NCBI RefSeq assembly: GCF_041886205.1
Contig: NZ_CP169029.1
Direction: 5' to 3' (one strand)
Length of the DNA: 64,000 nucleotides
Origin: Escherichia coli
GTDB taxonomy: Bacteria; Pseudomonadota; Gammaproteobacteria; Enterobacterales; Enterobacteriaceae
Shown: piece after piece, positions 4,338-30,000 of the stretch
How positions within the stretch are numbered: the first letter of the stretch is position 1
Layout of the letters: the number at the start of each line of letters is the position of its first letter
Notes under the pieces: generated by a model
Database searches by the model: none
Seen by the model: only the letters and a program-made list of their open reading frames with translations
Told to the model about the DNA's origin: nothing
Position numbers and translations under genes: made by a program

Positions 4338-6719
4338 ATGGATACGCCAGACGAAAAGGAACGCATTACATTTCCGCAAGTATCACGACGTAGTTTTTTA
4401 CAAGCGACTTCCGCGCTTATCACTTTGCCTTTTATTTCTTCTGCCGCAAAGGCGCAATCTTCAGATGCGTCGCCAGAAGTTACAGCTCCGGTGGCTGATA
4501 AAGTCGTGCCCACCTGTAGCACATTTGACTGTGGTGGTAAGTGCGATATTCGGGCGCATATGCGCGACGGTGTGGTGACGCAAATTACCACGCTTCCCGA
4601 TAACGAACTGGATCCACAAATGCCGATTATGCGCGCCTGTGTTCGTGGTCGCGGCTATCGTAAATTTGTTTATCATCCAGACCGCCTGAAATATCCGATG
4701 AAACGGGTCGGTAAACGGGGCGAGGGTAAATTTGAGCGTATTTCATGGGATGAGGCGACGACCTTAATTGCCGATAACCTGAAAAGGATCACGCAACAAT
4801 ATGGCCCGGCTTCACGTTATGTCCATGTCGGGACGGCTGTTTCTGGTGGAACATTTTCTGGTGATGCGATGGCACGTCGGCTGTTAAATTTAACCGGTGG
4901 TTATCTTGAATATTATCACTCAGTTAGTCTGGGTAATACTGCGGCCGCAACGCCTTACACGTATGGCGTGGCGGCCAGCGGTAACTCGATGGACACTCTT
5001 CTGGATACCAAACTGGTGATCCTCTGGGGGCATAACCCAACGGAAACCATCTTCGGTCACACCAATTACTTTTTTCAAAAAATGAAGCAAAACGGTACGC
5101 GTTTTATCGTGGTGGATCCGCGTTATTCCGACACTGTATCTTCGCTTGCCGATCAGTGGATCCCGCTGCTGCCGACCACGGACAATGCGTTGATGGACGC
5201 GATGATGTACGTGATTATCAGCGAAAATCTCCACGATAAGCAGTTTATCGAAACTTACACGCTCGGTTTTGATGAAGATTCCATGCCTGAGGGCGTACCG
5301 GCGAACGAGTCGCTGTATGCCTACCTGTTCGGCGCGAAAGATGGCGTGCGCAAAACGCCGGAATGGGCAGAAAAAATTACCCACGTTCCGGCACAAACTA
5401 TTCGTCAACTGGCACGCGATTACGCCACTACAAAACCTGCGGCGCTGATTCAGGGTTGGGGGCCACAGCGACATATTTGCGGCGAACGTACCGCCCGAGG
5501 TTCAACTTTACTGGCCTCGATTACCGGTAACGTCGGCATCAAAGGTGGCTGGGCGGCAGGTTATGGCGGTAGTTCTAATCGTAAATTCTGCGTTGGACCA
5601 GATATGCCAGAAAATCCGGTACAAGCGAAAATCTCGATTATGAACTGGATGCAGGCGGCGGATGATGCTTCTAAAGTTACGCCGCAAGATGGGCTTAAAG
5701 GTGTCGATAAACTCGACAGTAATATCCGCCTGCTGTTCTCACTGGCAGGTAATTATCTGGCGAACCAGAACCCGGACGTCCACCAGGCCGCGAAGCTCCT
5801 TGAAGACGAATCTAAAATAGAATTCATCGTACTCAGCGATCTGTTCATGACTCCGAGCGCGAAATATGCCGATGTGTTGCTGCCGGAAACCAGCTTTATG
5901 GAACGCTGGAATATCGGCGAAACATGGGGAACAGCGAGCTATCTTATTCTGTCAGAAAAACTGATTGAGCCGGAGTTTGAACGTCGCACGGATTATGACT
6001 GGTTGCGTGACGTGGCGAAAAAACTGGGTGTCGAAGCCGAGTTCAGTCAGGGACGTGATGAGAAGCAATGGATTGAGCATATCTGGGAGCAAACTCGTCT
6101 GGCGATGCCGGATGAAAATTTGCCGGACTTCGCGACCCTGCAAAAAACACGTCGCCATCTTTTCAAAAGTGCGCCGCACATCGCTTTCGAAGCAAATATT
6201 CGCGATCCGCAGAATAATCCTTTCCCGACGCCTTCCGGCAAAATTGAGATCTTCTCTAAGCGTCTTTTTGATATGCAAGATCCAGAAATTCCCGCGCTTT
6301 CGCACTATGTCCCTGCCTTTGAAGGGCCAGAAGATAAACTGACGGCGAAATACCCGTTGCAGCTCATCACCTGGAAAGGGAAAAACCGTGCTAATTCCAC
6401 CCAGTATGCTAACCCATGGCTGCAAGAAGTTCAGACGCAAAAACTCTGGCTGAATCCGCAAGATGCAAAACAGCGCGGGATTAGCGAAGGAGATAGCGTA
6501 AAAATTTATAACGATCGTGGTGTGAGCATTATCCCGGTGGAAATAACCCCCCGTATCATCCCTGGCGTAGTTGCTATGCAGGCGGGGGCATGGTGGCAAC
6601 CGGATGCACAAGGTATCGATCGCGGAGGCTGTGCCAATGTACTGAGTTCGACCCGCATTACGGCGCTGGCGAAAGGGAATTCGCATCAAACAATGCTGGT
6701 GGAGGTTGAGAAAGCATGA
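4338..6719 (+). CDS. Tat-exported molybdopterin (bis-MGD) oxidoreductase catalytic subunit, DMSO reductase (DmsA) family
   Basis: 793 aa; twin-arginine signal SRRSFLQATSA followed by an AxA-type cleavage region; N-terminal Cys cluster C-x4-C-x3-C...C; length and architecture match DmsA/YnfE-type enzymes; stop overlaps the next ATG. Confidence 0.85.
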   Translation: MDTPDEKERITFPQVSRRSFLQATSALITLPFISSAAKAQSSDASPEVTAPVADKVVPTCSTFDCGGKCDIRAHMRDGVVTQITTLPDNELDPQMPIMRACVRGRGYRKFVYHPDRLKYPMKRVGKRGEGKFERISWDEATTLIADNLKRITQQYGPASRYVHVGTAVSGGTFSGDAMARRLLNLTGGYLEYYHSVSLGNTAAATPYTYGVAASGNSMDTLLDTKLVILWGHNPTETIFGHTNYFFQKMKQNGTRFIVVDPRYSDTVSSLADQWIPLLPTTDNALMDAMMYVIISENLHDKQFIETYTLGFDEDSMPEGVPANESLYAYLFGAKDGVRKTPEWAEKITHVPAQTIRQLARDYATTKPAALIQGWGPQRHICGERTARGSTLLASITGNVGIKGGWAAGYGGSSNRKFCVGPDMPENPVQAKISIMNWMQAADDASKVTPQDGLKGVDKLDSNIRLLFSLAGNYLANQNPDVHQAAKLLEDESKIEFIVLSDLFMTPSAKYADVLLPETSFMERWNIGETWGTASYLILSEKLIEPEFERRTDYDWLRDVAKKLGVEAEFSQGRDEKQWIEHIWEQTRLAMPDENLPDFATLQKTRRHLFKSAPHIAFEANIRDPQNNPFPTPSGKIEIFSKRLFDMQDPEIPALSHYVPAFEGPEDKLTAKYPLQLITWKGKNRANSTQYANPWLQEVQTQKLWLNPQDAKQRGISEGDSVKIYNDRGVSIIPVEITPRIIPGVVAMQAGAWWQPDAQGIDRGGCANVLSSTRITALAKGNSHQTMLVEVEKA

Positions 6720-7345
6720 GCCAATTTAAAGAATTTGCATCTGTCAGCGACAAACAATTAGGGTTCTTCATTGACTCTTCGCGTTGTTCTGGCTGTAAAG
6801 CGTGTCAGGTGGCCTGTAAAGACAAAAATAACCTTGAGGTTGGGCGACGTTTTCGCCGCGTGTATGAAGTGAACGGCGGTGGCTTCATCGCCACTGGAGA
6901 GGGCGGTGTGAGTCATAATGTCTTTGCTTATACCCTTTCTATTTCCTGTAACCATTGCGCGGATCCGATCTGTATCAAAAATTGCCCGACGATGGCGATG
7001 CATAAGCGTCCCGGAGACGGTATTGTGCGCGTGAATACTGATAAGTGCGTCGGTTGCGGTTACTGCGCCTGGTCCTGTCCTTACGGCGCACCGCAAATGA
7101 ATGAGCAGACCGGGCAGATGTCGAAATGCGATTTCTGTATTGATCTGCAAGCTAAAGGAGAACAACCCATTTGCGTGGCAACGTGCCCGTTGGGGGCGAT
7201 TAAGTTCGGCCCTATTGATGAGTTGCGTGAAAAGTATGGCGATGTCAGTGATGTGAAAGGTTTACCTGATTCGTCGATTACGCAGCCAAATCTGGTGATT
7301 AAACCGCATCAGGGCGCGGAAAAGGAGGCGTCACATCATGCATGA
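6716..7345 (+). CDS. 4Fe-4S electron-transfer subunit, DmsB-like
   Basis: 209 aa with four ferredoxin-type Cys clusters (e.g. CSGCKACQVAC, CNHCADPICIKNCP, CVGCGYCAWSCP, CDFCIDL...CVATCP); translationally coupled to neighbours. Confidence 0.85.
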   Translation: MSQFKEFASVSDKQLGFFIDSSRCSGCKACQVACKDKNNLEVGRRFRRVYEVNGGGFIATGEGGVSHNVFAYTLSISCNHCADPICIKNCPTMAMHKRPGDGIVRVNTDKCVGCGYCAWSCPYGAPQMNEQTGQMSKCDFCIDLQAKGEQPICVATCPLGAIKFGPIDELREKYGDVSDVKGLPDSSITQPNLVIKPHQGAEKEASHHA

Positions 7346-8159
7346 ATTACCGTTAATGGCTTTTACGCTGTTGTTACAGGCATCGGTCGGTATGACCTTG
7401 TGGCTGGCGTTTCTTCATCGTCATATTTTAATCACCTCCAGCGCCCGCCCGGTTATGCGGCCGCCATTACTGTTGGCTTTTTTGGCAGGTGCCGTAGGGT
7501 TACTGATTTCTACCTTACATCTGGGTTATCCACTTAATGCGATGCATGCGCTAAGCCACTTTTCCAGTTCATGGCTGAGTCGGGAAATTATCTTTGGTGC
7601 GCTGTATCTGGCGCTATTGGGTTTATCCACATTACTGGTCATGTTACGCAAAGGCGGCTGGCAACTCCTGCTTATGCTAGCGGCAGTGGTCGGGATTGTT
7701 GATGTTTTCTGCATGGCGCAAGTTTACATCCATACGTCGATTATCACCTGGCAGCATTACAACACGCTGATTATGTTCTTAGGTACAGTGGGAATTCTCG
7801 GTTCAGCGCTGGTAGCAGTGTTTCGTATTAGCGGAATTTTGCCGCAGATTGATGCCCTGCGTAATGGATGCGTGTTGGTGATCGCTTTCCTGGTTCTGTT
7901 GCGTTTGTTGGTTCAGCCGTTGTGGATAGGGGATTTAACGGCAAATGCGATGCAGATAGCCACATTGCCACATGCGCCATTAGCGATGCTGGGACAGTTA
8001 AAACCCATACTGACACTAAGCTGGGGAATTTCCGTCATTGGGATGATGTTCTTTGCTGTCGGTGGTTGTAAAAAGAATATCCCGGCGGCGTTATTCGGTA
8101 GCGTAATGCTAGTGGGGAGTGAAGTTATGCTGCGTTTTGTCTTTTTTAGTATCAGCTAA
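7338..8159 (+). CDS. integral membrane anchor subunit, DmsC-like
   Basis: 273 aa, highly hydrophobic with about 8 predicted transmembrane segments; position after the A and B homologues. Confidence 0.7.
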   Translation: MHELPLMAFTLLLQASVGMTLWLAFLHRHILITSSARPVMRPPLLLAFLAGAVGLLISTLHLGYPLNAMHALSHFSSSWLSREIIFGALYLALLGLSTLLVMLRKGGWQLLLMLAAVVGIVDVFCMAQVYIHTSIITWQHYNTLIMFLGTVGILGSALVAVFRISGILPQIDALRNGCVLVIAFLVLLRLLVQPLWIGDLTANAMQIATLPHAPLAMLGQLKPILTLSWGISVIGMMFFAVGGCKKNIPAALFGSVMLVGSEVMLRFVFFSIS

Positions 8160-9013
8160 TGTTAAGTCATAACATAACGATTGGCGCGGAATGCGCGCGC
8201 CAACGCTTTCGTTTTGCAACATGTCATGCCTGTGTCGAGGCTTGCCCGGCACAGGCGCTAACGCTGACAGAAGAGGGCGTAGCGGTCGACGCGGAACAAT
8301 GTATTGAGTGTGCGGTTTGCCAGTTTATTTGCCCGCAAGAGGCTATTCGTGGCGTTAATTCCCCTTTACGTTATTTTCGCAATCACACCCTGGTCGCACC
8401 TTTCACCACTATTGCGCCGACGCTGGAAGAACTTTTGCTATGGCATAAAGAGCAGGGGATCACAGCGATCGCGATTGATCTGAGTCAGGCGAAGGCATGG
8501 GAGCGCGCATTATTGCTGTTAAACGAACGCTTACGGCAATATGGCGAGGAAGGCTGGTCTGTGGTATCTCCACATACCAGTGAGGTGAATGTTTCCCGGC
8601 GTCGTTTGTTCCATGTGCAGCGTGCGGATGTTCAGATGACACAAATACAGCCAGGATTACGTCGGTTACATTATTTTTGGCCCCAGATTAGTGATGCTCG
8701 CCCGATGATGGATCCTCAAAAGTGTCAGCTTTGCGGTGCATGCTGGCGGGCCTGCGGGCAACAGGTCTTTTCGCTTAACGAAGGCCATTTACAAATCAAT
8801 GATGCCTTGTGTACCGGATGCCAAAATTGTATTGCTGTTTGTTTTCATCAGGCAATGACCGTTGAATTGACGATTCTACCGGCAAAAATTGTGAATCTTC
8901 ATGCTAATCGCAAAGTCTGTAAAACCTGTCAAAAATCCTTTCTTACTTTTCAGCAAAATGCGCAAAATTGTCTTTATTGCCAACGTCATCGCTATGGGAT
9001 GAGAGCATCATAA
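8159..9013 (+). CDS. polyferredoxin-like protein (four 4Fe-4S-type Cys motifs plus C-terminal CxxC-x14-CxxC)
   Basis: 284 aa; motifs CHACVEACP, CIECAVCQFICP, CQLCGACWRAC, CTGCQNCIAVC and CKTCQ...CLYCQ; start overlaps the previous stop (TAATG). Confidence 0.7.
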   Translation: MLSHNITIGAECARQRFRFATCHACVEACPAQALTLTEEGVAVDAEQCIECAVCQFICPQEAIRGVNSPLRYFRNHTLVAPFTTIAPTLEELLLWHKEQGITAIAIDLSQAKAWERALLLLNERLRQYGEEGWSVVSPHTSEVNVSRRRLFHVQRADVQMTQIQPGLRRLHYFWPQISDARPMMDPQKCQLCGACWRACGQQVFSLNEGHLQINDALCTGCQNCIAVCFHQAMTVELTILPAKIVNLHANRKVCKTCQKSFLTFQQNAQNCLYCQRHRYGMRAS

Positions 9014-18428: not shown

Positions 18429-18467
18429 GGTTTTATCATTTGTATTTAATATACAAATGATAAAACC
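18429..18467. repeat. perfect 17-bp inverted repeat (ggttttatcatttgtat / atacaaatgataaaacc), hairpin at the core/accessory junction
   Basis: Read directly; 5-nt spacer; followed by T-rich sequence; lies in the AT-rich 190-bp leader of the SinH-like gene. Confidence 0.5.
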
Positions 18468-18621
18468 TTCTCTTATTAGTTAAATCATTAATACATGTGA
18501 GTAAAATTATTTAGATATATTTTTAGGAATATATTTAGTTTTTCTGACGTGCCTTCCTGAATGTTCTGGCATAGAATATTAGAGCTTATTCATCAAATTA
18601 TCATTGCCACAGGGAAAGTGC

Positions 18622-20796
18622 ATGCTGCGATGGAGTCGCTTTATTATGTTACTATTCATCTCTGCTGCAACTCCTGCGGCAGAGATAAATAGTAAGCAAA
18701 ACGAATCGTTACCTGATTTAGGCAGCCAGGCGGCTCAACAAGTAGAACAAACGGATAAGGGTAAATCGTTAAAAGAGCGTGGAGCCGATTACGTCATTGA
18801 TTCTGCTACGCAAGGGTTTGAAAACCTAACCCCCGAGGCGCTGGAATCTCAGGCCAGAAGCTATCTGCAAAGTCAAATCACCTCAACCGCACAATCTTAT
18901 ATTGAAGACACACTCTCTCCCTACGGTAAGGTCCGTTCGAATCTCTCTATTGGTCAGGGTGGCGATCTGGATGGTAGCTCCATCGATTATTTTGTTCCCT
19001 GGTATGATAATCAAACGACCGTTTATTTCAGTCAATTTTCTGCGCAACGAAAAGAGGATCGTACGATCGGGAATATCGGAATTGGAGTAAGACATAATTT
19101 CGATGAATGGCTTTTGGGTGGGAATATATTTTACGATTATGATTTCACCCGTGGGCATCGTCGTTTAGGTTTAGGGACAGAAGCCTGGACCAATTATTTA
19201 AAATTTTCTGGCAACTATTATCATCCGCTCTCTGACTGGAAAAACTCTGAGGATTTCGACTTTTATGAAGAGCGTCCGGCGCGCGGTTGGGATATTCGTG
19301 CTGAAGCCTGGTTACCTTCTTATCCACAACTGGGGGGCAAGATTGTCTTCGAGCAATATTACGGTGATGAAGTCGCCCTTTTTGGTACGGATAATTTAGA
19401 GAAAGATCCCTATGCGGTGACGCTAGGACTAAATTATCAACCGGTACCGTTACTGACAGTTGGAACGGATTATAAAGCGGGGACCGGAGATAACAGCGAT
19501 GTCAGCATTAATGCCACTCTTAATTATCAGTTCGGCGTTCCGCTAAAAGATCAACTCGACAGCGATAAAGTAAAAGCAGTCCACTCGTTGATGGGTAGCC
19601 GACAGGACTTTGTCGAGCGTAATAACTTTATCGTCCTGGAATATAAAGAGAAAGACCCTCTGGATGTGACGTTGTGGCTGAAAGCGGATGCGACCAACGA
19701 GCATCCAGAGTGCGTCATTAAGGACACTCCTGAAGCGGCGGTCGGTCTGGAAAAATGTAAGTGGACCATTAACGCACTGATCAATCACCACTACAAAATT
19801 GTCGCTGCGTCATGGCAGGCGAAAAACAATGCCGCCCGCACGCTGGTGATGCCGGTCATCAAAGAAAATACCATCACTGAAGGCAACAACAACCACTGGA
19901 ATCTGATACTGCCAGCCTGGCAGTACAGCTCTGACAAAGCTGAGCAGGAAAAACTCAATACCTGGCGGGTACGGCTGGCGCTGGAAGATGAAAAAGGTAA
20001 TCGGCAAAACTCCGGCCTGGTGGAAATCACTGTTCAGCAGGACCGTAAAATAGAGCTTATCGTCAATAACATTGCCGATGCGCCTGCCGAGAATAACCAC
20101 AGCCATGAAGCCAGCGCTCAGGCGGATGGCGTTGATGGTGTAGTCATGGACCTCGAGGTGACGGACAGTTTTGGCGATAACACGGACCGCAACGGTGATG
20201 CTCTGCCAGAAGATAATCTTGCACCGCAGCTCTACGACGCTCAGGACAAAAAAGTCACGCTAACCAATAAACCCTGCTCGACCGACAACCCCTGCGTGTT
20301 TATTGCCAAACAAGATAAAGAAAAGGGAACGGTAACCCTCTCCAGTACATTGCCAGGCGTTTTCCGCTGGAAAGCGAAAGCGGCTCCCTACGATGACAGT
20401 AACTATGTGGATGTCACGTTTATTGGATCTGATATCGGCGGGCTTAATGCTTTCATTTACCGGCTTGGGGTAGCGAAGCCAGTCAATTTGATCGGCAATG
20501 ATAAAGACCCCCTGCCGCTGGGCAACACGTACCGATTTGTGTTGTGGCGTGATGCCAACAAAGACGGCGTTTTTCAGCAGTCGGAAAAACTAACCGATGA
20601 AGAGATGACTCAGTACGACTACAAGTGGGAATTTACCGGCAAGAGCATCAATGGCGAAGTAGGTGCGCAGGCGAACACATCCAATGCAGACATTGTAATA
20701 CCGGCGACCAACCGTGAAGCGGCGCAATCCTATGGTGCAAAAGTGGAAGATGGCTTGCAGGGATACGGTTTACGCGTGCTGTACACCAAAAAATAA
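18622..20796 (+). CDS. sinH: intimin/invasin-family inverse autotransporter adhesin (SinH-like)
   Basis: 724 aa from the ATG at 18622 (ORF-track start 18604 is an alternative upstream start); signal peptide MLRWSRFIMLLFISAATPAA; N-terminal beta-barrel-type region with alternating aromatic motifs (WTNYLKFSGNYYHPL, TLGLNYQPVP), then C-terminal passenger; position and architecture as recalled for Salmonella sinH. Confidence 0.75.
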   Translation: MLRWSRFIMLLFISAATPAAEINSKQNESLPDLGSQAAQQVEQTDKGKSLKERGADYVIDSATQGFENLTPEALESQARSYLQSQITSTAQSYIEDTLSPYGKVRSNLSIGQGGDLDGSSIDYFVPWYDNQTTVYFSQFSAQRKEDRTIGNIGIGVRHNFDEWLLGGNIFYDYDFTRGHRRLGLGTEAWTNYLKFSGNYYHPLSDWKNSEDFDFYEERPARGWDIRAEAWLPSYPQLGGKIVFEQYYGDEVALFGTDNLEKDPYAVTLGLNYQPVPLLTVGTDYKAGTGDNSDVSINATLNYQFGVPLKDQLDSDKVKAVHSLMGSRQDFVERNNFIVLEYKEKDPLDVTLWLKADATNEHPECVIKDTPEAAVGLEKCKWTINALINHHYKIVAASWQAKNNAARTLVMPVIKENTITEGNNNHWNLILPAWQYSSDKAEQEKLNTWRVRLALEDEKGNRQNSGLVEITVQQDRKIELIVNNIADAPAENNHSHEASAQADGVDGVVMDLEVTDSFGDNTDRNGDALPEDNLAPQLYDAQDKKVTLTNKPCSTDNPCVFIAKQDKEKGTVTLSSTLPGVFRWKAKAAPYDDSNYVDVTFIGSDIGGLNAFIYRLGVAKPVNLIGNDKDPLPLGNTYRFVLWRDANKDGVFQQSEKLTDEEMTQYDYKWEFTGKSINGEVGAQANTSNADIVIPATNREAAQSYGAKVEDGLQGYGLRVLYTKK

Positions 20797-20850
20797 GATT
20801 GGCGTAAGGCCAGTCGGCCAGTCGCTGAAGATTCATTAAGGAGAGACTCA

Positions 20851-21828
20851 ATGAAGCAGGACAAAAGACGCGGTCTGACCCGGATCGCATTGGCGCTGGC
20901 ACTGGCGGGTTACTGCGTGACGCCCCTTGCGCTGGCGGAAGACAGCGCGTGGATCGAGAGCGGCGAGACCAATATTTTCCAGGGGACTATTCCGTGGCTC
21001 TATTCGGAAGGAGGAAATGCTACGACAGATGCCGACCATGTAACGTTGACTTCTGATCTAAAAGGCGCTCGCCCGCAAGGCAGTGAAACGGACAAGCGTC
21101 TTTACTCGGGTGATAAACTAACCGTAAGCTGGGAGATTGGCGATACTGAAGGCGACGTCGATCTTGGTACGGCGGGTAAAGATGCAAAAACCATCGATAC
21201 CATCCGCTGGATGAGCTACAAGGACGCCCAGGGGGGCGATCCAAAAGAGCTGGCAACGAAGGTGACCACTTACACCCTTACCGATGCCGACCGTGGACGC
21301 TATATCGGTATTGAAATTACCCCAACCACCCAGACGGGTACGCCATACGTTGGGACTGCGCTGCATCTTTATGATGTTTCAAATGCTAACGGCGGGGGAA
21401 GCGATGAAGATAACGTTGATCCAGGACCGGTAGTTAACCAGAACCTGAAAGTCGCCATCTTTGTTAAAGACACTACGACCAACCTTATTAACGGCAATAC
21501 GCCAATCCAGTTGGGCAAAACGTACGTCGCCAAACTGTACTCGGATGAGAACAAAAACGGTCGGTATGACGCGGGTACTGACGTTGATGTTACCACCAAT
21601 TATGACTACCGTTGGGTACTCTCTGGCAGCAGCCAACAGCTCAGCACCTCGGGTGGTATCGTTAACTCAAGCTTCGATAATCAAAACCTGGTCATCCCTG
21701 CGACCAACGACGAAGCCAGAACCAACCTTAACGGCCCTGCTCGTGATGGCAAAGAGGCTCTTGCGATCCCGACCAACGGCGATGGGGTTCAGGGTTACAA
21801 ACTGCAAATTATCTACAAACACAAATAA
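20851..21828 (+). CDS. sinI: secreted protein sharing a C-terminal module with the SinH-like passenger (SinI-like)
   Basis: 325 aa; signal peptide with AEDSAW cleavage region; C-terminal ~110 aa align to the SinH-like C-terminus (VIPATN-EA, DG-QGY-L-Y-K, YDY-W--G-S). Confidence 0.65.
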   Translation: MKQDKRRGLTRIALALALAGYCVTPLALAEDSAWIESGETNIFQGTIPWLYSEGGNATTDADHVTLTSDLKGARPQGSETDKRLYSGDKLTVSWEIGDTEGDVDLGTAGKDAKTIDTIRWMSYKDAQGGDPKELATKVTTYTLTDADRGRYIGIEITPTTQTGTPYVGTALHLYDVSNANGGGSDEDNVDPGPVVNQNLKVAIFVKDTTTNLINGNTPIQLGKTYVAKLYSDENKNGRYDAGTDVDVTTNYDYRWVLSGSSQQLSTSGGIVNSSFDNQNLVIPATNDEARTNLNGPARDGKEALAIPTNGDGVQGYKLQIIYKHK

Positions 21829-21839
21829 CACTTGCTCAA

Positions 21840-21870
21840 CAGCATTCCCGCGTGGGAATGCTGTTTCCGC
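21840..21870 (+). terminator. possible rho-independent terminator after the SinI-like gene
   Basis: Hairpin cagcattccc gcgt gggaatgctg followed by TTTCCGCATATTTT. Confidence 0.5.
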
Positions 21871-21903
21871 ATATTTTGCTTAATTCAGGATTAAGCAAAA
21901 TAT
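21871..21903. promoter_or_regulatory. perfect 14-bp-arm palindrome (atattttgcttaat-tcagg-attaagcaaaatat) 45 bp upstream of the giant ORF; candidate operator
   Basis: Read directly in sequence; function unknown. Confidence 0.35.
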
Positions 21904-21948
21904 GTTGATGCGGTAACCGTTCGTTAAATAACTGGTGGAGTTCTTTTC

Positions 21949-24900
21949 ATGTCCCAGCCCCTGAAACCCGGCACTTTTTATGTTCTGCTTGTATTGCTGC
22001 TAACCGCAATGCTGCCGGGATGGTCATGGGCGGGCTCGTCATGGCAAGACTCATCCGATACGGCGGGAGAATTTAACGGTACCGTCCCCAATGCCGACAG
22101 CGCCAGTATGCCGGTTTATCAGGGCAGTATTTGGCTTGATCCTGCAAAGACCCATGATGTTTCGTTTTCCGCTAAACCCAATGAATTTAGCGTTAATCTG
22201 GATGTGTCGAAGCTGATTGTGACGAACCCGCAGGACCTGGAAGGGGATGTGTTTACCAACCCCCGTTGGGAAAACCAAACGCCGCCAGCGGTCTCTTTAG
22301 TCTGGGCGGATGCGGCGACACCGGAAACCCCACTTAATCCTCAGCCAGTGGCTGGGCGTTCCTTTTGTGCGCAAGGGCTTGCTGGGCGTTCGCTGGTTGT
22401 CTGGCCGCAGCCAGACCCACAGCAGACCATGCCGCAACTTTATCTACGCACCTCGACAGGTTATCCCTATGAAAGTCTTCTGACGCTTGTCGATAAAAAA
22501 GTGACGTTAAATATTGCACCGGCCCAGGGCGACTTAATTTCTGTCAGTGCGGCCGGTTATGACGATACCGTGGGCGGGGCGAAAACTACCGTTGGCGGCA
22601 ATATCACGTTGACCGTTACCACCAAAGACTGCAGCGGCAACGTTGCAGGAAATATTCCTTTTATTATCAAACGCAAAGATGCTGAAAACCGACAGGGTGA
22701 GGTCAACAATGCTTCGCCGGTTGTTCTGGACAAAACTGAACTGACCACTATCGCGACCGAATATCACGGCACCACGGATGCGAACGGCGTTGCGACGATC
22801 ACGGTCACGCAACCCAACGGCCCTGGTGTAAAAACGCCGCTGGTAGCCAGTCTTTCAGGTATTGGTCAAACCAGTGAAACGGCAGTGATCTTTACCGTCC
22901 TTACCAGCCCGGATGTCCCTCAGGCCACGATGTGGGGCCATATGCCCGATACGCTAAAGGCCCATGATTATACGTTCAGTCGGCCAAAATTGGCGGCAGA
23001 AGTCGATAACGAAAATGGTACCGTTAACGATCACAATGAAACCTGGTCTACCTTCACCTGGAGCGGGGCGGATAAACATTGCGACATTTTGCCCGGTATG
23101 CGCCAGTTTGGCGCGTTGGCAACGGTGGTGCCCACGACAGTTCAGGATCTCGTTGGTTGGCCGATACAGGGTAACTACTACTGGTCATCACTGGCGGGGA
23201 TGACCGGACAGCACCATGCGGCGGATGTTTCCAACCGTAGCGAAGCGCAAAAACCGGACGATACGACGTTTATTGTCAGTTGTGTCGATAAAGAAGCTCC
23301 TGACGTTGAACCGAAACTGGTGCTAACACCGGGAAGCTATGATTCGACGTTAAAGGCGATGAAAGTAAAGGTGGGGGAAGAAGCGTCTCTGCGTGTAACC
23401 ATCACCGATAATAAAAACAATAATCAACCGCTGGCGTATTACTACTTTTCGTTACATCTGGATGACGGCATCAACCGTAAAAATCCATCGGATGCGGCAT
23501 GGGAAGCGCATCCGGTGCAGATAGCGGGTGGCAGCAATGTCCATCAGGTTGACGCGCATACCTATGAAGGCATTACGGATGTAAATGGTCAGGCATCACT
23601 GACGCTAACGCAACCGGGCGGCGCGGGCGTGAAAACACACATTACTGCGAAAATGCGCAGCGACTTCACCACGTCGGATGAGAAAGACGTGATTTTTACA
23701 GTCATTACCAGCCCCGATACTGACAAAGCCCGGATGTGGGGGCATATGCAGGGTATTATTGATTCTAATAATATCTTTAAACGTCCACGGCTGGCAGATG
23801 AAACCGACCATGAACTCGGTTCAGTGCGGGAGAACAACGAAGACTGGGCGCTGTTCGACCAAAATAGCAGCATGCAGGCTGAATGCGGTGTAGGTCATAT
23901 TCCGAGCCAGAATCAATTACAGGGTCTGTTCACGGCGCATCCTGGCAATGCGATTGGCACCGAATATGGCTGGCCGACGGCGCAAAAAGATTACCTTAGT
24001 GCGGTACAACAAGAGCCACACTCCTCCGTGAACCTGGGCACAGGTAACATCGACACCTATTCAGGCTTTAAGCAGAACTATCTCTCCTGTTCCGGTAATG
24101 AGATGGTTGCTCAGATTACCGCAACGACCGATCATGACGTTTCCGTGGGCAGCAGGGCGCAGGCTAAAGTTGGAGAAACCGTCACCATGACGGTGCATAC
24201 CTTCAATGCACTGAATAATGCGCCCGTGCCGTTTACCGCCTTCAGCATCACAAAGGAGATGGGTAAAAACCGTCAGGGGCAGACTACCGGATATACCGAT
24301 CCGACGAGTGGCGCAATTGAGATGAATGGCACGCTCTACGGAACATCCCAGGCCTCGGTGGTTTATTCCGGGACTACGGATGCACAGGGCTACGCAACGG
24401 TGGAGATTGAACAACCCCAGGGCGTGGGCTTAATTACGCCGCTAAATATTGCGCCTGTGAACTCCTATATTCCCAATACAGTAAATTACAACGTGATTTT
24501 CACCACGCCTACCAGCCCGGATGTGGTGGCGGCGCAGATGTGGGGGCATATGGATGAGACTATTACAGTCGATTCTTTAACCTTCACCCGGCCTAAACTG
24601 GCAGCGGAAGTTTCCAGCCCGGATGCGACATTGACAGAAAATAATGAAGTCTGGGCACGTGTGAGTCAGGCGAATACGTCCAGTATAAGTAAAGGTGGCT
24701 GTGGAGCGAATATGCTGCCGCGTCGATCCCAGCTTAGCGCGCTCTATGAGGCTAATAACGGTAATGCTGTACAAACAGTACACGGCTGGCCAACCCTGCG
24801 TGAGCCGTACTGGAGTAGTTCCCCAGCGGATAAAGTTCCTCATTTTTACACCATTGCACTCAATGATGGCGCACAGGCTATTGGCGGTAGCAACGCGGTT

Positions 24901-27900
24901 TATGTCAGCTGCCTGACGACGGCAAATAGTCCTGCTAACGCTATTACCTTAGAGGTGGTGGATCAGGCGCAATGGAACGCGACGGCGAAAGCGGCGAAGC
25001 TGAAAAAAGGCGAAACACTCCAGGTTAAGGTAACGGTGAAGGATGCTCAGGGCAATGCACTGTCGGATATGCCATTCACCCTGAAACGTGGCGATGGTTA
25101 TACCCGCTCAAATGAAAAACATATTGCTGGCAGCGGGGATGCGCTGGTTGCGCCAGTCATCGTCAACGGAGGCCTGGCGGATGAAACTTCACTGAATGAT
25201 ACCGCGACAGCATACGTTGCCATGACCGGCAGCGACGGCACTAAAATACTTACCATAACCCGCCCGGAGACGCATGGCACCAAAACGGCGCTGATCGCTG
25301 CGCTGTATTCTGATGCAACGAAAAACGCCAGCCTCGACACCATTTTTACCGTTGCGACCAGCCCGGACAGCGATAAGGCGAAAATGTGGGGGCACATGGC
25401 GGAAACGGTGACGGCTACTGACGGCACGGTATTTAAACGCCCGCGCTTACTGAAAGAGTGGTCAACTCAGTCCTCTCTTACTGAAGATAATGAGGTCTGG
25501 GGGTTGTATAACATCAGCGATGCAAAATCTACCAGCGATGGCTGTGGCGCTAATTATGTTCCTGCGCAGGTTGGGCTGGAGTCATTGTTTGACAATAACC
25601 GCAGCAACGCGATGAAAACCGTACAAGGTTGGCCGGTAAATACTCATTATCTTTCAAGCACCTCGAGTACGGACAGTTTATCGCAGCATAATTATAAAGC
25701 CGTCGATCTGGGCAATGGAACCAGTACCTCAATATCCGCTTCCGAGAGGAAGTTGTTAACCTGCCAGACGACCGAGGTGTTACAGGCAAGCCAGATTCTG
25801 CTGGACGCAGCGGATCCAACCACCTTCGACAGCACAAATAATGTTGTCAAAGTTAAAAAAGGCGAAGCGGCAGTGGTGCGTGTAACCACGAAGGATTCGC
25901 AGGGGAATCCTGTAGGAAATACCGCATTTACCCTCAAACGAAACTACAGCGTGAACAGGGCTAATGCGTCGAATACCACGTCGATTGCTTCATTGGTGGT
26001 AACGGATGCATGGGGAAATACTCAGGACAGTTTTCTTTCCACGTCCCTGGTCATTTATGGCGTAACGGGGGCCGATGGCACCACCACCTTTACACTGAAA
26101 CAAGACCAGTCTACCGGCTTAAAAACGGAACTCACGGCAGCGCTGGACTCCTCCAGCAGCATTACATCGTCGCTTCCCGTCGTCTTTACGGTGCTTACCA
26201 GCCCGGATTCGCCAAAAGCCAAATTCTGGGGGCATATGGCTGAAACGGCGACAGGCGATGACGGTCTCATTTATAAAAGGCCATTGCTGAGAGACGAGAT
26301 TAGCGCCTCTAGCGGTATCAGCACCCTGACAGAAGAGGGGGAAAGCTGGTCTATGTTCCGGGCGGACAATGCTAATGATACTTCGATAAGTGGTTGTGGC
26401 GCGGAGTATGTTCCAACTGACAGTGAACTTAAGGCCATTTATGCGCACCAGGGGGGGAGCGCATTGCATGGTGCTATCGGCTGGCCCGTTTCGAAGCCCT
26501 ATATCTCGAATACCGTCGCAGATGCATTCACTCAACTCTTTAAGTTTGATGTCGTTTCGTTGAACACGGGAGATGAAACACAGATTTCATCAACTAGTGT
26601 AGGGCCTCTTAGCTGCCGTACCACGCCTGTCGCCGTTGCCAGTCAGATTATTGTTGAGGCGAACGATGCGGCGCAATTTGTCAAAGTTGACGATACCTTG
26701 AGTGCGCTGAAAGTGAAAAAAGGTGAAGACGCGGTGATTCGCGTGGTGACCAAAGATGCGCAGGGGAATACCGTGCCCAATGTTCCCTTTATTCTCAAGC
26801 GAGAGGGTTCAACGAATCGTCAAAATGTCACGATGATAAATAAGTCGATTACGGTGATTAACGCGGCAGGGACTTCTACGAATGTGCTTAGTTCGTCAAC
26901 ACTGCTTTATGGGGTAACGGGCGCGGACGGGACTACCACGTTTACGGTAAAACAAGATGATTCTATGGGTCTGATGACCAATATGTACGCTCAGTTGTAT
27001 CAGTCGACGATAGAATCCAACAAATTACCGGTGATGTTTACCGTTATAACCAGCCCGGATACGCCTCTGGCAAACTACTGGGGGCATATGTCTGAAACCT
27101 TCACGACAAGGTCGGGGGTTGTCTTCAAGCGGCCAATGCTTAGTGCCGAGCATCCAGCGGGGCAGTCAACCGTGGATAATAATGAATCCTGGCTTTCCTT
27201 AAATACAGCAGCAAAAAATGATGTCAGCAAATCAGGCTGTGACGAACCTTATCAACCGTTATTAAGCGAACTTCAGGATTTGTACAGTGAACATCCTAAT
27301 GGTGCGATAGGAACCGATTTAGGCCTTCCGTTGACGAAAACCTGGTGGGCTTACGATAAAGTGGCCTATGCGAACGCCTGGTACGATCAGTCTGTTAATT
27401 TGTCGAATGGGTCAAGCGCCAGGGCGTCGTCAACCACCGTTGCGTTTGTGCCCTGTCTGGTAAACCCTCATGCAGTGGCTGCTTCTATTGAGATAACCTC
27501 CACGGCACTGGATGCGGAGAAAACGGCCAGTAACGATGGTCGCCCCAGCGCAACCGCACCGAAAGGTACGGCGATCCGGATGACGGTGATTGTGCGGGAT
27601 AGCGCAGGAAATCCATTGCCCGGCGCCAACTTTAACCTCGTACGCGGGACGGCATTGGATCGTGCAAAATACAGTGTCGATAGTTCGGCTGATGATCTGA
27701 CCCTCGTGCCTGTCACACCTGCTGGCGTAAATATGACTCTCACGAGTAATACATCAAAAGCACTGTTGACGACAGGCAGTGATGGTAAAGTGACCTTTGA
27801 TGTGACGCAAAACGGGACTTATGGGCTCGCAACCCCGCTCACTGCAACATTGCTACGCGACACTTCAATAAGCGCCACGATGGATGTCATTTTCACGGTG

Positions 27901-30000
27901 ATAACCAGTCCCGACTCACCGAAAGCAAAATACTGGGGTCATATGGCCGACACGTTTACCAGCAGTGCGGGGGTGACCTTTAAACGACCACTACTGGCAG
28001 CGGAAGCGACCTCCGGGTCCTCGGTTGGCAGTAATAATGAGTCGTGGTCATACCTTAATGTTAACGACAGAGCTACGTCGGATTGCTCACTGGAGTATCA
28101 GCCGCGTCTCAATGAGTTACAGGGGTTATATAACGATCATCCTGGCGGGGCCATACAGACGGATCTGGGGTTACCTGTAGCTGCCGGAAGTGGAAACTGG
28201 TGGGCTTATGAAATGAGTATACCTAACCCCAGCGGGTCGGTGTGGTTTTACGGCATCATTAATTTGAAAACGGGACAATCGTCGACCACGTCGAGTGGAT
28301 TCGCTTTAATGCTCTGCCTGACGCAGCCGCATACGGTACCGGCAAGCCTTACACTGTCATCAACCGCCTACGATGAAGGCAGAACCGCCAGCAATGGTGG
28401 CACACCTACGTCATCTGTGAAAAAAGGTGAGACGCTTCCCTTAGTGGTGACGATCAAAGATGCCAATGGTAACCCCGTTGGCGGCGAAGGCGTTACGCTC
28501 AAGCGCGCGCAGGCGAAAAGCCGTTCAGGTATCTCTGTCTCCTCCACTACCGTTGATGATCTTATTTTAAATGAAGTCACACCGGAATCAGCCAGCTTTT
28601 CCTTCGCCGCGGATTTGGCATCATGGAGCGGCATCACCGGCAGTGACGGCACTGTAACGTTCAATATTACACAAAAAAATACCATCGGCCTGGTAACGCC
28701 GTTTACAGCCTCATTGGGGCGAAATCCGCAGGTCACCGCCAACCAGGACCTGATGTTCACGGTGGTAACCAGCCCGGATTCGCCGAAGGCAAACTACTGG
28801 GGGCATATGCCAGCAACCTTGACGGCAGTGAATGGTGCGGTATTTGAACGCCCGAAATTGTGGAGTGAACTGCCATCGACCTCCGGCGTCGGCAAGATCA
28901 ATAACAATAATGAGGACTGGCCGTACTATTCACCGACAAAAAAATCTGATGAGAGTGTGACCCCTTGCGAAGTGGCAAGACAGCCTCTGCTTAGTGATTT
29001 AAATTCGCTGTCTGCGCGTTATCCGGATAACACCTTCGCCGCTGAAACGGGCTGGTCTGTGTATTACACCTGGTGGGCAGAGGATAAATCCGCCGCGGGT
29101 AAAGATCAGTCGGTGGATTTGAGGAATGGCACGCTGTATACGAATGCAACAGGAGCATTTCTGCCATGCCTGGTTAATGCGCGTTCAACCGTTTCCAGCG
29201 TCACGCTCACCTCAACGGCGTTTGACGCTACCACTCAGGCGGCGAAAGTGAAAAAAGGCGAAGCCATGCCCGTTACCGTAACGGTGAAAGACAGCGCCGG
29301 GAAAACGGTGGCGAATGTGGCTTTTACCCTGAAACGCGGTGATGCTGCGCCAAGAAACCCAGGTATGGCCTTGTACGGCGATGTGGATGCGATGGATGAC
29401 ATGACCGTTCAGCCGACATCGGGAGCGGCGGTGACGTGGCCTGACAGTGGCAATGCTTTGCAGGGAACCACCGGTTCTGACGGTACGGCGACGTTTATGG
29501 TTAAACAGAATAATACGCCGGGTTATAAAACGCCGTTGACGGTCACGTTGGACAATAACACCAGCATCACTGCGACAATGGACGCTATTTTCACCGTAGT
29601 GACCAGCCCGAATGTCTCAAGCGCCTATTACTGGGGGCACATGGCAGATACGACCACGGTGAATGGTAAAACATTGCATCGCCCGTTGTTGGCATCGGAG
29701 CTACCTGCGAATGCTTCTTCCCCAGCCACGCCTGACGTAAACAATGAAGCCTGGGCTATGGGGCATATGGTGGATTCAAGGAATTGGGATATCGAGGCGC
29801 AGTGTGGCAGCTTGACCAACGCGCCAAACGATGACGACTTAATGGGTCTGTATACTAACTTTAGTTCGCTGGGTTGGCCTGCATCCCCGAGTTTTCCTTA
29901 CTTATCTTCTCAGAGATGCGGCGTGTTTGAAAACAGTGGACAACAGGACTGCGCTATTGCGCCAGGCAGCACAAAAGGTTTTGTGACTTGTACCCAATAA
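21949..30000 (+). CDS. giant secreted repetitive protein (2683 aa) with about 9 tandem ~280-aa modules containing Ig-like (BIG-type) segments; RatA/RatB/ShdA-family-like
   Basis: Signal peptide at the N-terminus; motif FTV-TSPD...WGHM recurs 9 times with 800-866-bp period (DNA positions about 22895, 23698, 24500, 25341, 26181, 27031, 27888, 28754, 29590); each module also has VKKGE...V.VTVKDA.GN...FTLKR and C(G)..Y.P...L..LY motifs. Confidence 0.8.

Follow-up and report, generated by a model that had tools for sequence, protein, structure and literature searches.

What does it mean when a surface-anchored adhesin and the barrel-less protein encoded next to it end in the same domain? The question is raised by the sinH-sinI-ratA island of an Escherichia coli chromosome, which was analyzed within a 64-kb stretch of DNA (hereafter the window). 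SinH is a type Ve inverse autotransporter, in which an N-terminal barrel is followed by a passenger of three domains (D1, D2 and D3); SinI, the product of the next gene, comprises a signal peptide and two domains (D1 and D2). The original prediction, made from the sequence of the window, had proposed a C-terminal module common to both proteins. The last ~115-128 residues of SinH and SinI are paralogous copies of one domain, namely SinH D3 and SinI D2. The function of this module can be stated less firmly: with somewhat less than even confidence, we favor a distal binding domain which is shared by the anchored adhesin and a ZirS/ZirU-type accessory protein. Feature coordinates are listed in Table 1; residues of SinH are counted from the longest open reading frame (ORF), corresponding to the RefSeq number plus six.

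Homology and Limits of the Shared C-terminal Module

The C-termini of SinH and SinI align as predicted. By BLASTP, residues 627-730 of SinH and 210-325 of SinI are 34% identical over 119 columns (E = 1e-12). The Smith-Waterman score of the two C-termini is 146, compared with 30.6 +/- 5.4 for 2000 shuffled controls, the highest of which reached 64 (z = 21). Each C-terminus moreover matches the NCBIfam profile of the respective other family (E = 1.2e-21 and 7.9e-12), and this cross-family match is present in all 24 members of the SinI family that were compared. Alignment of the two families with hhalign paired SinI 198-325 with SinH 613-730 over 111 columns (probability 99.9%, E = 8e-31), and both proteins terminate at the identical alignment position. 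In view of the shuffled controls, the hhalign result and the reciprocal profile matches, a chance or compositional similarity of the C-termini can be dismissed altogether.

The sequence motifs quoted for the two C-termini were found exactly as given, and the pairing of an inverse-autotransporter adhesin with an adjacent barrel-less signal-peptide protein that carries the same C-terminal domain represents true homology, beyond the shared fold that had been suggested. The limits of the module required correction: the SinH copy starts at about residue 613 (nt 20440) and not at 590, and the SinI copy starts at residue 198 (nt 21442). Positions 20270-20439 of the window belong to SinH domain 2, which has no counterpart in SinI. 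The module of the window's SinI contains a 12-residue insertion that characterises the SinI alleles called "type A" below.

The similarity is confined to the last domain, since hhalign gave no signal for any other pair of domains, SinI D1 with SinH D1 or D2 included. A resemblance of SinI D1 to SinH D1 or D2, which the wording of the literature suggests, was rejected on these grounds. A hidden Markov model (HMM) of the module matched the 64-kb window only twice, in SinH D3 and SinI D2; no copy was detected in RatA of the window, and the same holds for a Salmonella locus. Nor did the rest of the window, plasmids or phages yield further copies; the only two matches filed as plasmid lie on 4.9-Mb records, which are evidently chromosomes.

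The similarity of SinH and SinI was known before, so that this part of our analysis is confirmatory and leaves the published picture unchanged. It is credited to Kingsley 2003 by Heinz 2016 (PMC4943183), where the same resemblance between partner and autotransporter is reported for Yfr4 and for ZirT/ZirS/ZirU, and it is stated for the E. coli pair IatB/EcSMS35_2660 by Goh 2019 (PMC6714894). The genes, their order and their flanks (der, a zinc-ribbon gene and xseA) are the same in the window as in the Salmonella CS54 island with SinH/SinI and in the E. coli "ila" sinH-sinI-ratA locus with IatB and EcSMS35_2660, but the window carries a rare allele, and the similarity found here is limited to the last domain. 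The SinH copy of the module is equivalent to the published vaccine antigen SinH-3, a "receptor-binding domain" of RefSeq residues 602-724 (PMC9937491).

Predicted Structure, Calcium-type Loop and Wider Family

An AlphaFold2 model of the module, based on 30 module sequences, consists of five main strands and two short helices (predicted local distance difference test, pLDDT, 91; predicted template modeling score, pTM, 0.80). SinI D2, modeled in fusion with SinH D3 (see below), has its secondary-structure elements in the same order. Searches by sequence and profile yielded no solved structure matching the module or SinI, and the AlphaFold2 model had no significant match in the PDB, the structural matches being too weak for the assignment of a fold.

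Within the module a loop of 12 residues (SinH 650-661) conforms to the pattern D-x-[DN]-x-[DN]-G...[DE] of EF-hand-like and SdrD_B-type loops. The stricter pattern D-x-N-x-D-G-x-F/Y-x-x-x-E/D is present in all 18 SinH modules and in 12 of 20 SinI modules; in the SinI of the window the loop is one residue longer. An exhaustive search of 1.84 billion protein representatives with the module HMM returned 79 matches only, which fall into three kinds. Inverse autotransporters and about 20 clusters of SinI-like proteins (284-406 residues) carry the module at the C-terminus. The third kind comprises repeat proteins of the SpaA, SdrD_B and CarboxypepD_reg types, in which the match is partial and repeated and covers a strand-loop-strand segment. 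These partial matches, in proteins whose multiple stretches were identified by Pfam, are accounted for by the loop segment, and because those to SpaA and SdrD_B repeats fall on it, the loop is read as a putative SdrD_B-type calcium site.

When compared by hhalign, the module reached a probability of 92% with a SpaA unit and of 73% with SdrD_B repeats, each over 33-37 columns. The succession of a strand, the loop D-x-N-x-D-G-x-[FY]-x-x-x-[DE] and a second strand is common to the module and to these prealbumin-like, CnaB-type repeats, although just about one third of the module aligns, and neither SinH nor SinI has a Pfam match to SpaA or SdrD_B. The module is possibly a derived prealbumin-like sandwich. 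With the receptor-binding tips of intimin and invasin (C-type lectin-like D3/D5) it shares the position of the last passenger domain, distal to an immunoglobulin-like stalk; a C-type lectin-like fold at the end of the passenger was not found in SinH.

Evolution of the Two Copies

For the evolutionary comparison 19 genome loci (L001-L019) were used. The identity between the SinH and SinI modules is 38.0% whether the two are taken from one genome or from different genomes, and SinH and SinI copies were separated in 200 of 200 bootstraps; this clean sorting into the two protein types holds for Escherichia, Salmonella, Citrobacter, Pseudocitrobacter, Superficieibacter and Leminorella. From the equal identities and the invariable split it follows that the duplication is old and that the copies have not been homogenised; for the Sin clade we reject gene conversion and concerted evolution on the same figures.

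Independent evolution of the copies is also what would be expected of a mere relic, that is, a tandem partial duplication which left similar domains with no current functional link, and the independent recombination of sinI, described next, points the same way. Both copies are, however, under purifying selection: the ratio of nonsynonymous to synonymous substitution rates (dN/dS) is 0.14 for SinH D3 and 0.21 for SinI D2. The ratio rises along the operon but remains well below 1 throughout (barrel, 0.06; SinH D1, 0.035; SinH D2, 0.095; SinI D1, 0.14), the two copies ranking with the parts that evolve fastest. The common end point of SinH and SinI and the pairing kept or re-created in at least two more distant operons (see below) likewise speak against a relic, which we consider very unlikely.

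The sinI gene has a separate history and recombines independently of sinH. DNA identity to related loci is 80-87% from the barrel to D2 of sinH, declines to ~70% over D3 and to 51-66% over sinI and the initial ~650 nt of ratA, and then recovers. Two deep allele classes of sinI occur on near-identical SinH scaffolds and are distributed independently of the scaffold. Compared with the sinI of the window, 928 E. coli genomes carry alleles of 80-90% identity (e.g., Nissle 1917) and 753 carry alleles of 60-80% (e.g., ST131). Within SinI the distances of D1 and D2 are closely correlated (r = 0.93). The mirror-tree correlation of SinH D3 and SinI D2, for which linkage is a confounder, is r = 0.45 with a partial r of 0.19, and no specific coupling of the two domains emerged.

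Three observations concern the variation of this region. A hypervariable block at 20440-22600 extends from SinH D3 through the whole of sinI into ratA, of which it takes in the first ~217 codons; identity is 51-72% in the block compared with ~68-88% on its two sides, and the block ends at the start of RatA's first BIg21 repeat. The type A alleles of sinI (the window, L001-L004 and L016) have the 12-residue insertion in the module and are devoid of the NLKxG start. L001, a contig of 3.1 kb filed under a metagenome-assembled genome of Collinsella (Actinobacteria), contains the start of ratA and a sinI of 88% identity; it is almost certainly a binning contaminant of enterobacterial origin.

Matched Pairs in Distant Operons

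In two distant operons the tip of the autotransporter is matched to the C-terminus of its own partner. The operon L023 encodes an autotransporter of 751 residues and a neighbor of 290 residues, both with the module (E = 2e-20 and 5e-36). The autotransporter module is 49% identical to that of its partner and 29-33% identical to those of SinH or SinI; of 100 bootstraps, 93 united the L023 pair in a clade and none united SinH with the L023 autotransporter. The operon L029 consists of genes for a regulator, an autotransporter of likewise 751 residues, two SinI-like proteins, a small protein lacking the module and a Big_1 protein of 931 residues; here the last 140 residues of the autotransporter align with those of the first partner at z = 17. 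A weaker form of this matching is seen in L024, L025 and L030. That modules sort by system and not by protein type argues for a match which was maintained or re-created, and its retention in distant operons suggests that it is selected rather than a relic.

Such matching across lineages would also be expected if the module associated like with like, so that SinI D2 bound the SinH tip and a multi-protein adhesin arose, as has been proposed for ZirT/ZirS/ZirU; SinI would then cap, extend or bridge SinH, perhaps with a link to RatA. This docking is the main rival of a shared distal binding domain, though a doubtful one in our estimation. Besides the matched pairs, it is favored by the example of ZirTSU (cited in PMC4943183 and PMC10298799) and by the joint location of SinH D3, sinI and the start of ratA in one hypervariable block. 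It was examined with a fusion of SinH D3 and SinI D2 via a linker, modeled with AlphaFold2 monomer weights and a paired alignment of 18 genomes; the linker blocks the C-terminus of D3 in this construct. Both domains were folded and the linker was disordered, but the pTM was 0.48 and no confident packing of the domains was obtained, in what is a weak test with 18 pairs. The low mirror-tree correlation and the two deep sinI types on near-identical SinH also stand against docking, as does a SinI-like gene that occurs as an orphan. Finally, IatB, i.e., SinH, mediates biofilm formation alone, without the partner (PMC6714894).

The orphan lies at 8001-9074 of L026 (GCA_011745665.1, a 2.6-Mb genome) between slyX and an EamA gene and encodes a SinI-like protein of 357 residues (module E = 2.6e-14). 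It is located near ribosomal protein operons, and no inverse autotransporter gene is adjacent. Larger partners are encoded in L023 (4782-5885) and L029 (7041-9836). They combine the SinI-type N-terminal motif (see below) with Big_1 or Big_2 domains, the one of L023 also with a SinI-D1-like segment, and to the eye their C-termini are reminiscent of the lectin-type ends in intimin and invasin. What stays constant among partners seems to be the N-terminal part, and what varies, the C-terminal part.

An N-terminal Motif of Barrel-less Partners

All 23 barrel-less partners examined possess a motif of ~20-25 residues that begins a few residues past the signal-peptide cleavage site. It reads [ST]-x-x-[IVLF]-x-G-x-x-P and is often preceded by LKxGxWQ in SinI, RatA and RatB. 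In the window it is located at 20938-21006 (SinI residues 30-52) and at 22033-22098 (the mature N-terminus of the RatA-like protein, residues 29-50). Elsewhere it is found in RatA and RatB of L021 and in partners of L023, L024, L027, L029 and L030, including the Big_1/Big_2 proteins of L023 and L029; the loose pattern also occurred in 6 of 49 control ORFs. An HMM of 28 positions built from RatA N-termini matched the N-termini of the common SinI class with E-values of 1e-8 to 2.5e-5 and Salmonella SinI with 1.3e-8 (6e-7 against all ORFs of the locus), and hhalign aligned the motif over 25 columns (E = 4.7e-7). In the SinI of the window the motif is degenerate (2 bits). A homology of SinI D1 with the whole N-terminal domain of RatA was rejected, as the first ~25 mature residues alone align. 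The motif co-varies with the sinI allele type, which linkage may explain because both lie inside one hypervariable recombination block. It may constitute a common signal for export or tethering.

A targeting signal of this kind would suit the export model spelled out by Heinz 2016 (PMC4943183) in analogy to two-partner secretion, in which SinH is the translocator, its passenger recognizes SinI and RatA in the periplasm, and the module would serve for substrate recognition; the requirement of ZirT for the secretion of ZirS (PMC2270342) supports it as well. In concept the system resembles FhaC/FHA, where an outer-membrane barrel handles separately encoded exoproteins with a conserved N-terminal element. 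It differs in that SinH, SinI and RatA have no Pfam match to a two-partner secretion (TPS) domain, a POTRA domain or an Omp85 barrel, and in that the common N-terminal element amounts to just ~20-25 residues. RatA, furthermore, lacks the module, which therefore is not the general recognition element. SinH/IatB is surface-located, according to Goh 2019 as cited in PMC9937491, and its domain 3 is surface-exposed and protects mice upon immunisation (PMC9937491); for both reasons the SinH passenger is placed outside the cell. Export by recognition of the module is accordingly judged quite improbable.

We also considered a two-part "address code" formed by the N-terminal motif of the partners and the matched C-terminal module of tip and partner. 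In this arrangement, which we think unlikely, the motif would be the export or tether signal, perhaps by strand docking on the module, and SinH, SinI and the anchor-less RatA could assemble serially on the surface. No description of these elements was found in the literature searched.

The signal peptide of SinI is itself conspicuous. Gly20-Tyr21-Cys22 and Pro25 (20908-20925) are invariant in 24 family members, which is unusual for a signal peptide, and "LAGY" is retained even in very distant SinI-like proteins. Inspection ruled out SinI as a lipoprotein, given that the Tyr at position -1 of LAGYC is not compatible with a lipobox.

A Proposed Shared Distal Binding Domain

A distal binding domain common to both proteins is favored because SinH/IatB works without its partner and immunisation with D3 protects mice. 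The module would be the unit with which the system binds at its distal end, compact, rich in beta-strands and stabilised by the SdrD_B/SpaA-like D-x-N-x-D-G calcium loop. SinH would present it at the far end of a stalk anchored to the cell surface, and SinI would bear a second copy on a barrel-less, Sec-exported accessory protein of the ZirS/ZirU type, which, by analogy with ZirT/ZirS, may be released or remain associated with the surface. The anchored and the unanchored protein would recognize the same kind of target, and a mutual docking via the module would not be needed.

The designation of SinI as a "secreted partner" in the original prediction has its basis in the signal peptide and the ZirT/ZirS precedent and is to be understood in this conditional sense. 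Judged by description, ZirT/ZirS/ZirU of Salmonella (Gal-Mor 2008; Prehna 2012) has the same arrangement, a barrel protein followed by barrel-less, Sec-exported proteins that resemble the passenger. In SinI this resemblance extends to the last domain only, and SinI lies outside the ZirU family. The profile ZirU_fam matches SinI D1 weakly (E = 5e-5; 23.5 bits at a cut-off of 100) and leaves the shared module uncovered; similarly weak matches were obtained for 11 of 24 SinI family members (best E = 3.5e-8), which indicates a distant relationship of SinI D1 to ZirU below the threshold of family membership. ZirT-dependent secretion is known for ZirS, whereas a passage of SinI across the outer membrane is presumed by analogy.

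Several points weigh against a shared binding function. Both the ligand of the module and the exit of SinI from the periplasm are presumptive. The 21 positions that are conserved in both paralog families could all be structural. The grouping of modules by system is equally expected from homotypic contact, and the title of Prehna 2012, in which ZirTSU is called a "multiprotein immunoglobulin adhesion system", favors a physical association of partner and autotransporter. The fused model, finally, is weak as a counterweight, with its 18 paired sequences, monomer weights and obstructed D3 C-terminus.

Gene Order and Genomic Context

The three genes of the island are encoded on the plus strand between der with the zinc-ribbon gene (yfgJ position) and xseA. 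The locus corresponds to the CS54/ila island and is carried on the E. coli chromosome. In all 18 loci with sufficient upstream flank sinH is located immediately 5' of sinI, as it is in Salmonella.

Table 1. Features of the sinH-sinI-ratA island in the window.
Feature	Position	Strand	Description
sinH	18604..20796	+	Intimin-like inverse autotransporter, 730 aa (longest ORF); RefSeq start 18622 gives 724 aa
SinH outer-membrane beta-barrel, aa 68-341	18805..19626	+	Pfam IAT_beta (PF11924), E 2.5e-107
Module copy 1, SinH D3, aa 613-730	20440..20793	+	BLASTP, shuffle control, hhalign; module HMM E 1.8e-43
12-residue loop DANKDGVFQQSE, SinH aa 650-661	20551..20586	+	EF-hand/SdrD_B-like; putative Ca2+ site
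sinH-sinI spacer	20797..20850	+	54 nt; AAGGAG at 20838-20843, 7 nt 5' of the sinI ATG
sinI	20851..21828	+	325-aa member of the SinI family of autotransporter-associated proteins; aa 1-29, Sec-type signal peptide (ends LALA/ED, slash marking the cleavage site)
SinI D1 and Gly/Asp-rich linker, aa 30-197	20938..21441	+	Starts with the N-terminal motif of the partners (aa 30-52)
Module copy 2, SinI D2, aa 198-325	21442..21825	+	BLASTP, shuffle control, hhalign; module HMM E 8.2e-43
ratA-like giant adhesin	21949..30000	+	2683 aa; nine stretches each of BIg21 and InvE_AD; signal peptide; barrel-less

The family assignments are clear. SinH scored 1466.8 bits with the NCBIfam model inverse_SinH (NF033423; cut-off 999) and covered profile positions 1-730; its barrel matches the invasin/intimin barrels 4e1t and 4e1s of the PDB (E = 3.5e-72 and 7e-63). 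SinI reached 342.9 bits with partner_SinI (NF040711; cut-off 165) and showed no Pfam match to the IAT_beta barrel, and the signal peptide was read from its sequence and the alignment of the SinI family. The ratA-like product scored 5240 bits with the RatA-like model of NCBIfam. Co-transcription of sinH and sinI has been reported (PMC12525524). The spacer between them contains a good ribosome-binding site, and a terminator scan of it revealed no terminator-like site.

Among 5426 complete E. coli genomes the locus is present in 1751. The stretch of 3.9 kb around the shared module is 100% identical in E. coli strain wlxctx60; it is matched at ≥99% by eight of the complete genomes, which makes the allele of the window rare, and at 80-90% by 1682.

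Some further features of the locus were noted. Directly 3' of the zinc-ribbon gene a hairpin with a 17-bp stem and a T-rich tail (18429-18467) adjoins the start of the low-GC stretch (0.42) of the island; the core operon probably terminates at this hairpin, which would mark the edge of the island. A weak terminator-like hairpin in the gap between sinI and ratA (21852-21870) might reduce read-through into ratA. In E. coli E69 (L018, 2321-5308) sinH is broken into two ORFs of 241 and 512 residues upstream of an intact sinI and is probably a pseudogene. Elsewhere in the window, a four-gene cluster of the dimethyl sulfoxide/selenate reductase family is located between pbpC and ndk (4338-9013). It may be another accessory insertion; strain K-12 presumably has nothing at this position.

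Implications

Compared with the literature, the present analysis adds the age of the duplication and the purifying selection on both copies, the small size of the family (79 matching representatives), the loop, the recurring pairing, the docking result of the fused model and the N-terminal motif. The domain limits, the pairs matched in several lineages and the N-terminal motif of the partners provide concrete constructs for testing, in type Ve systems, what SinI-type partners do and how barrel-less partners such as RatA arrive at or are retained on the surface. SinH domain 3 is a pre-clinical vaccine antigen against extraintestinal pathogenic E. coli (PMC9937491), and the co-transcribed SinI holds a homologous domain of 33-44% identity. 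Relative to SinH-3, SinI could act as a decoy, a cross-reacting target or a modulator of adhesion.

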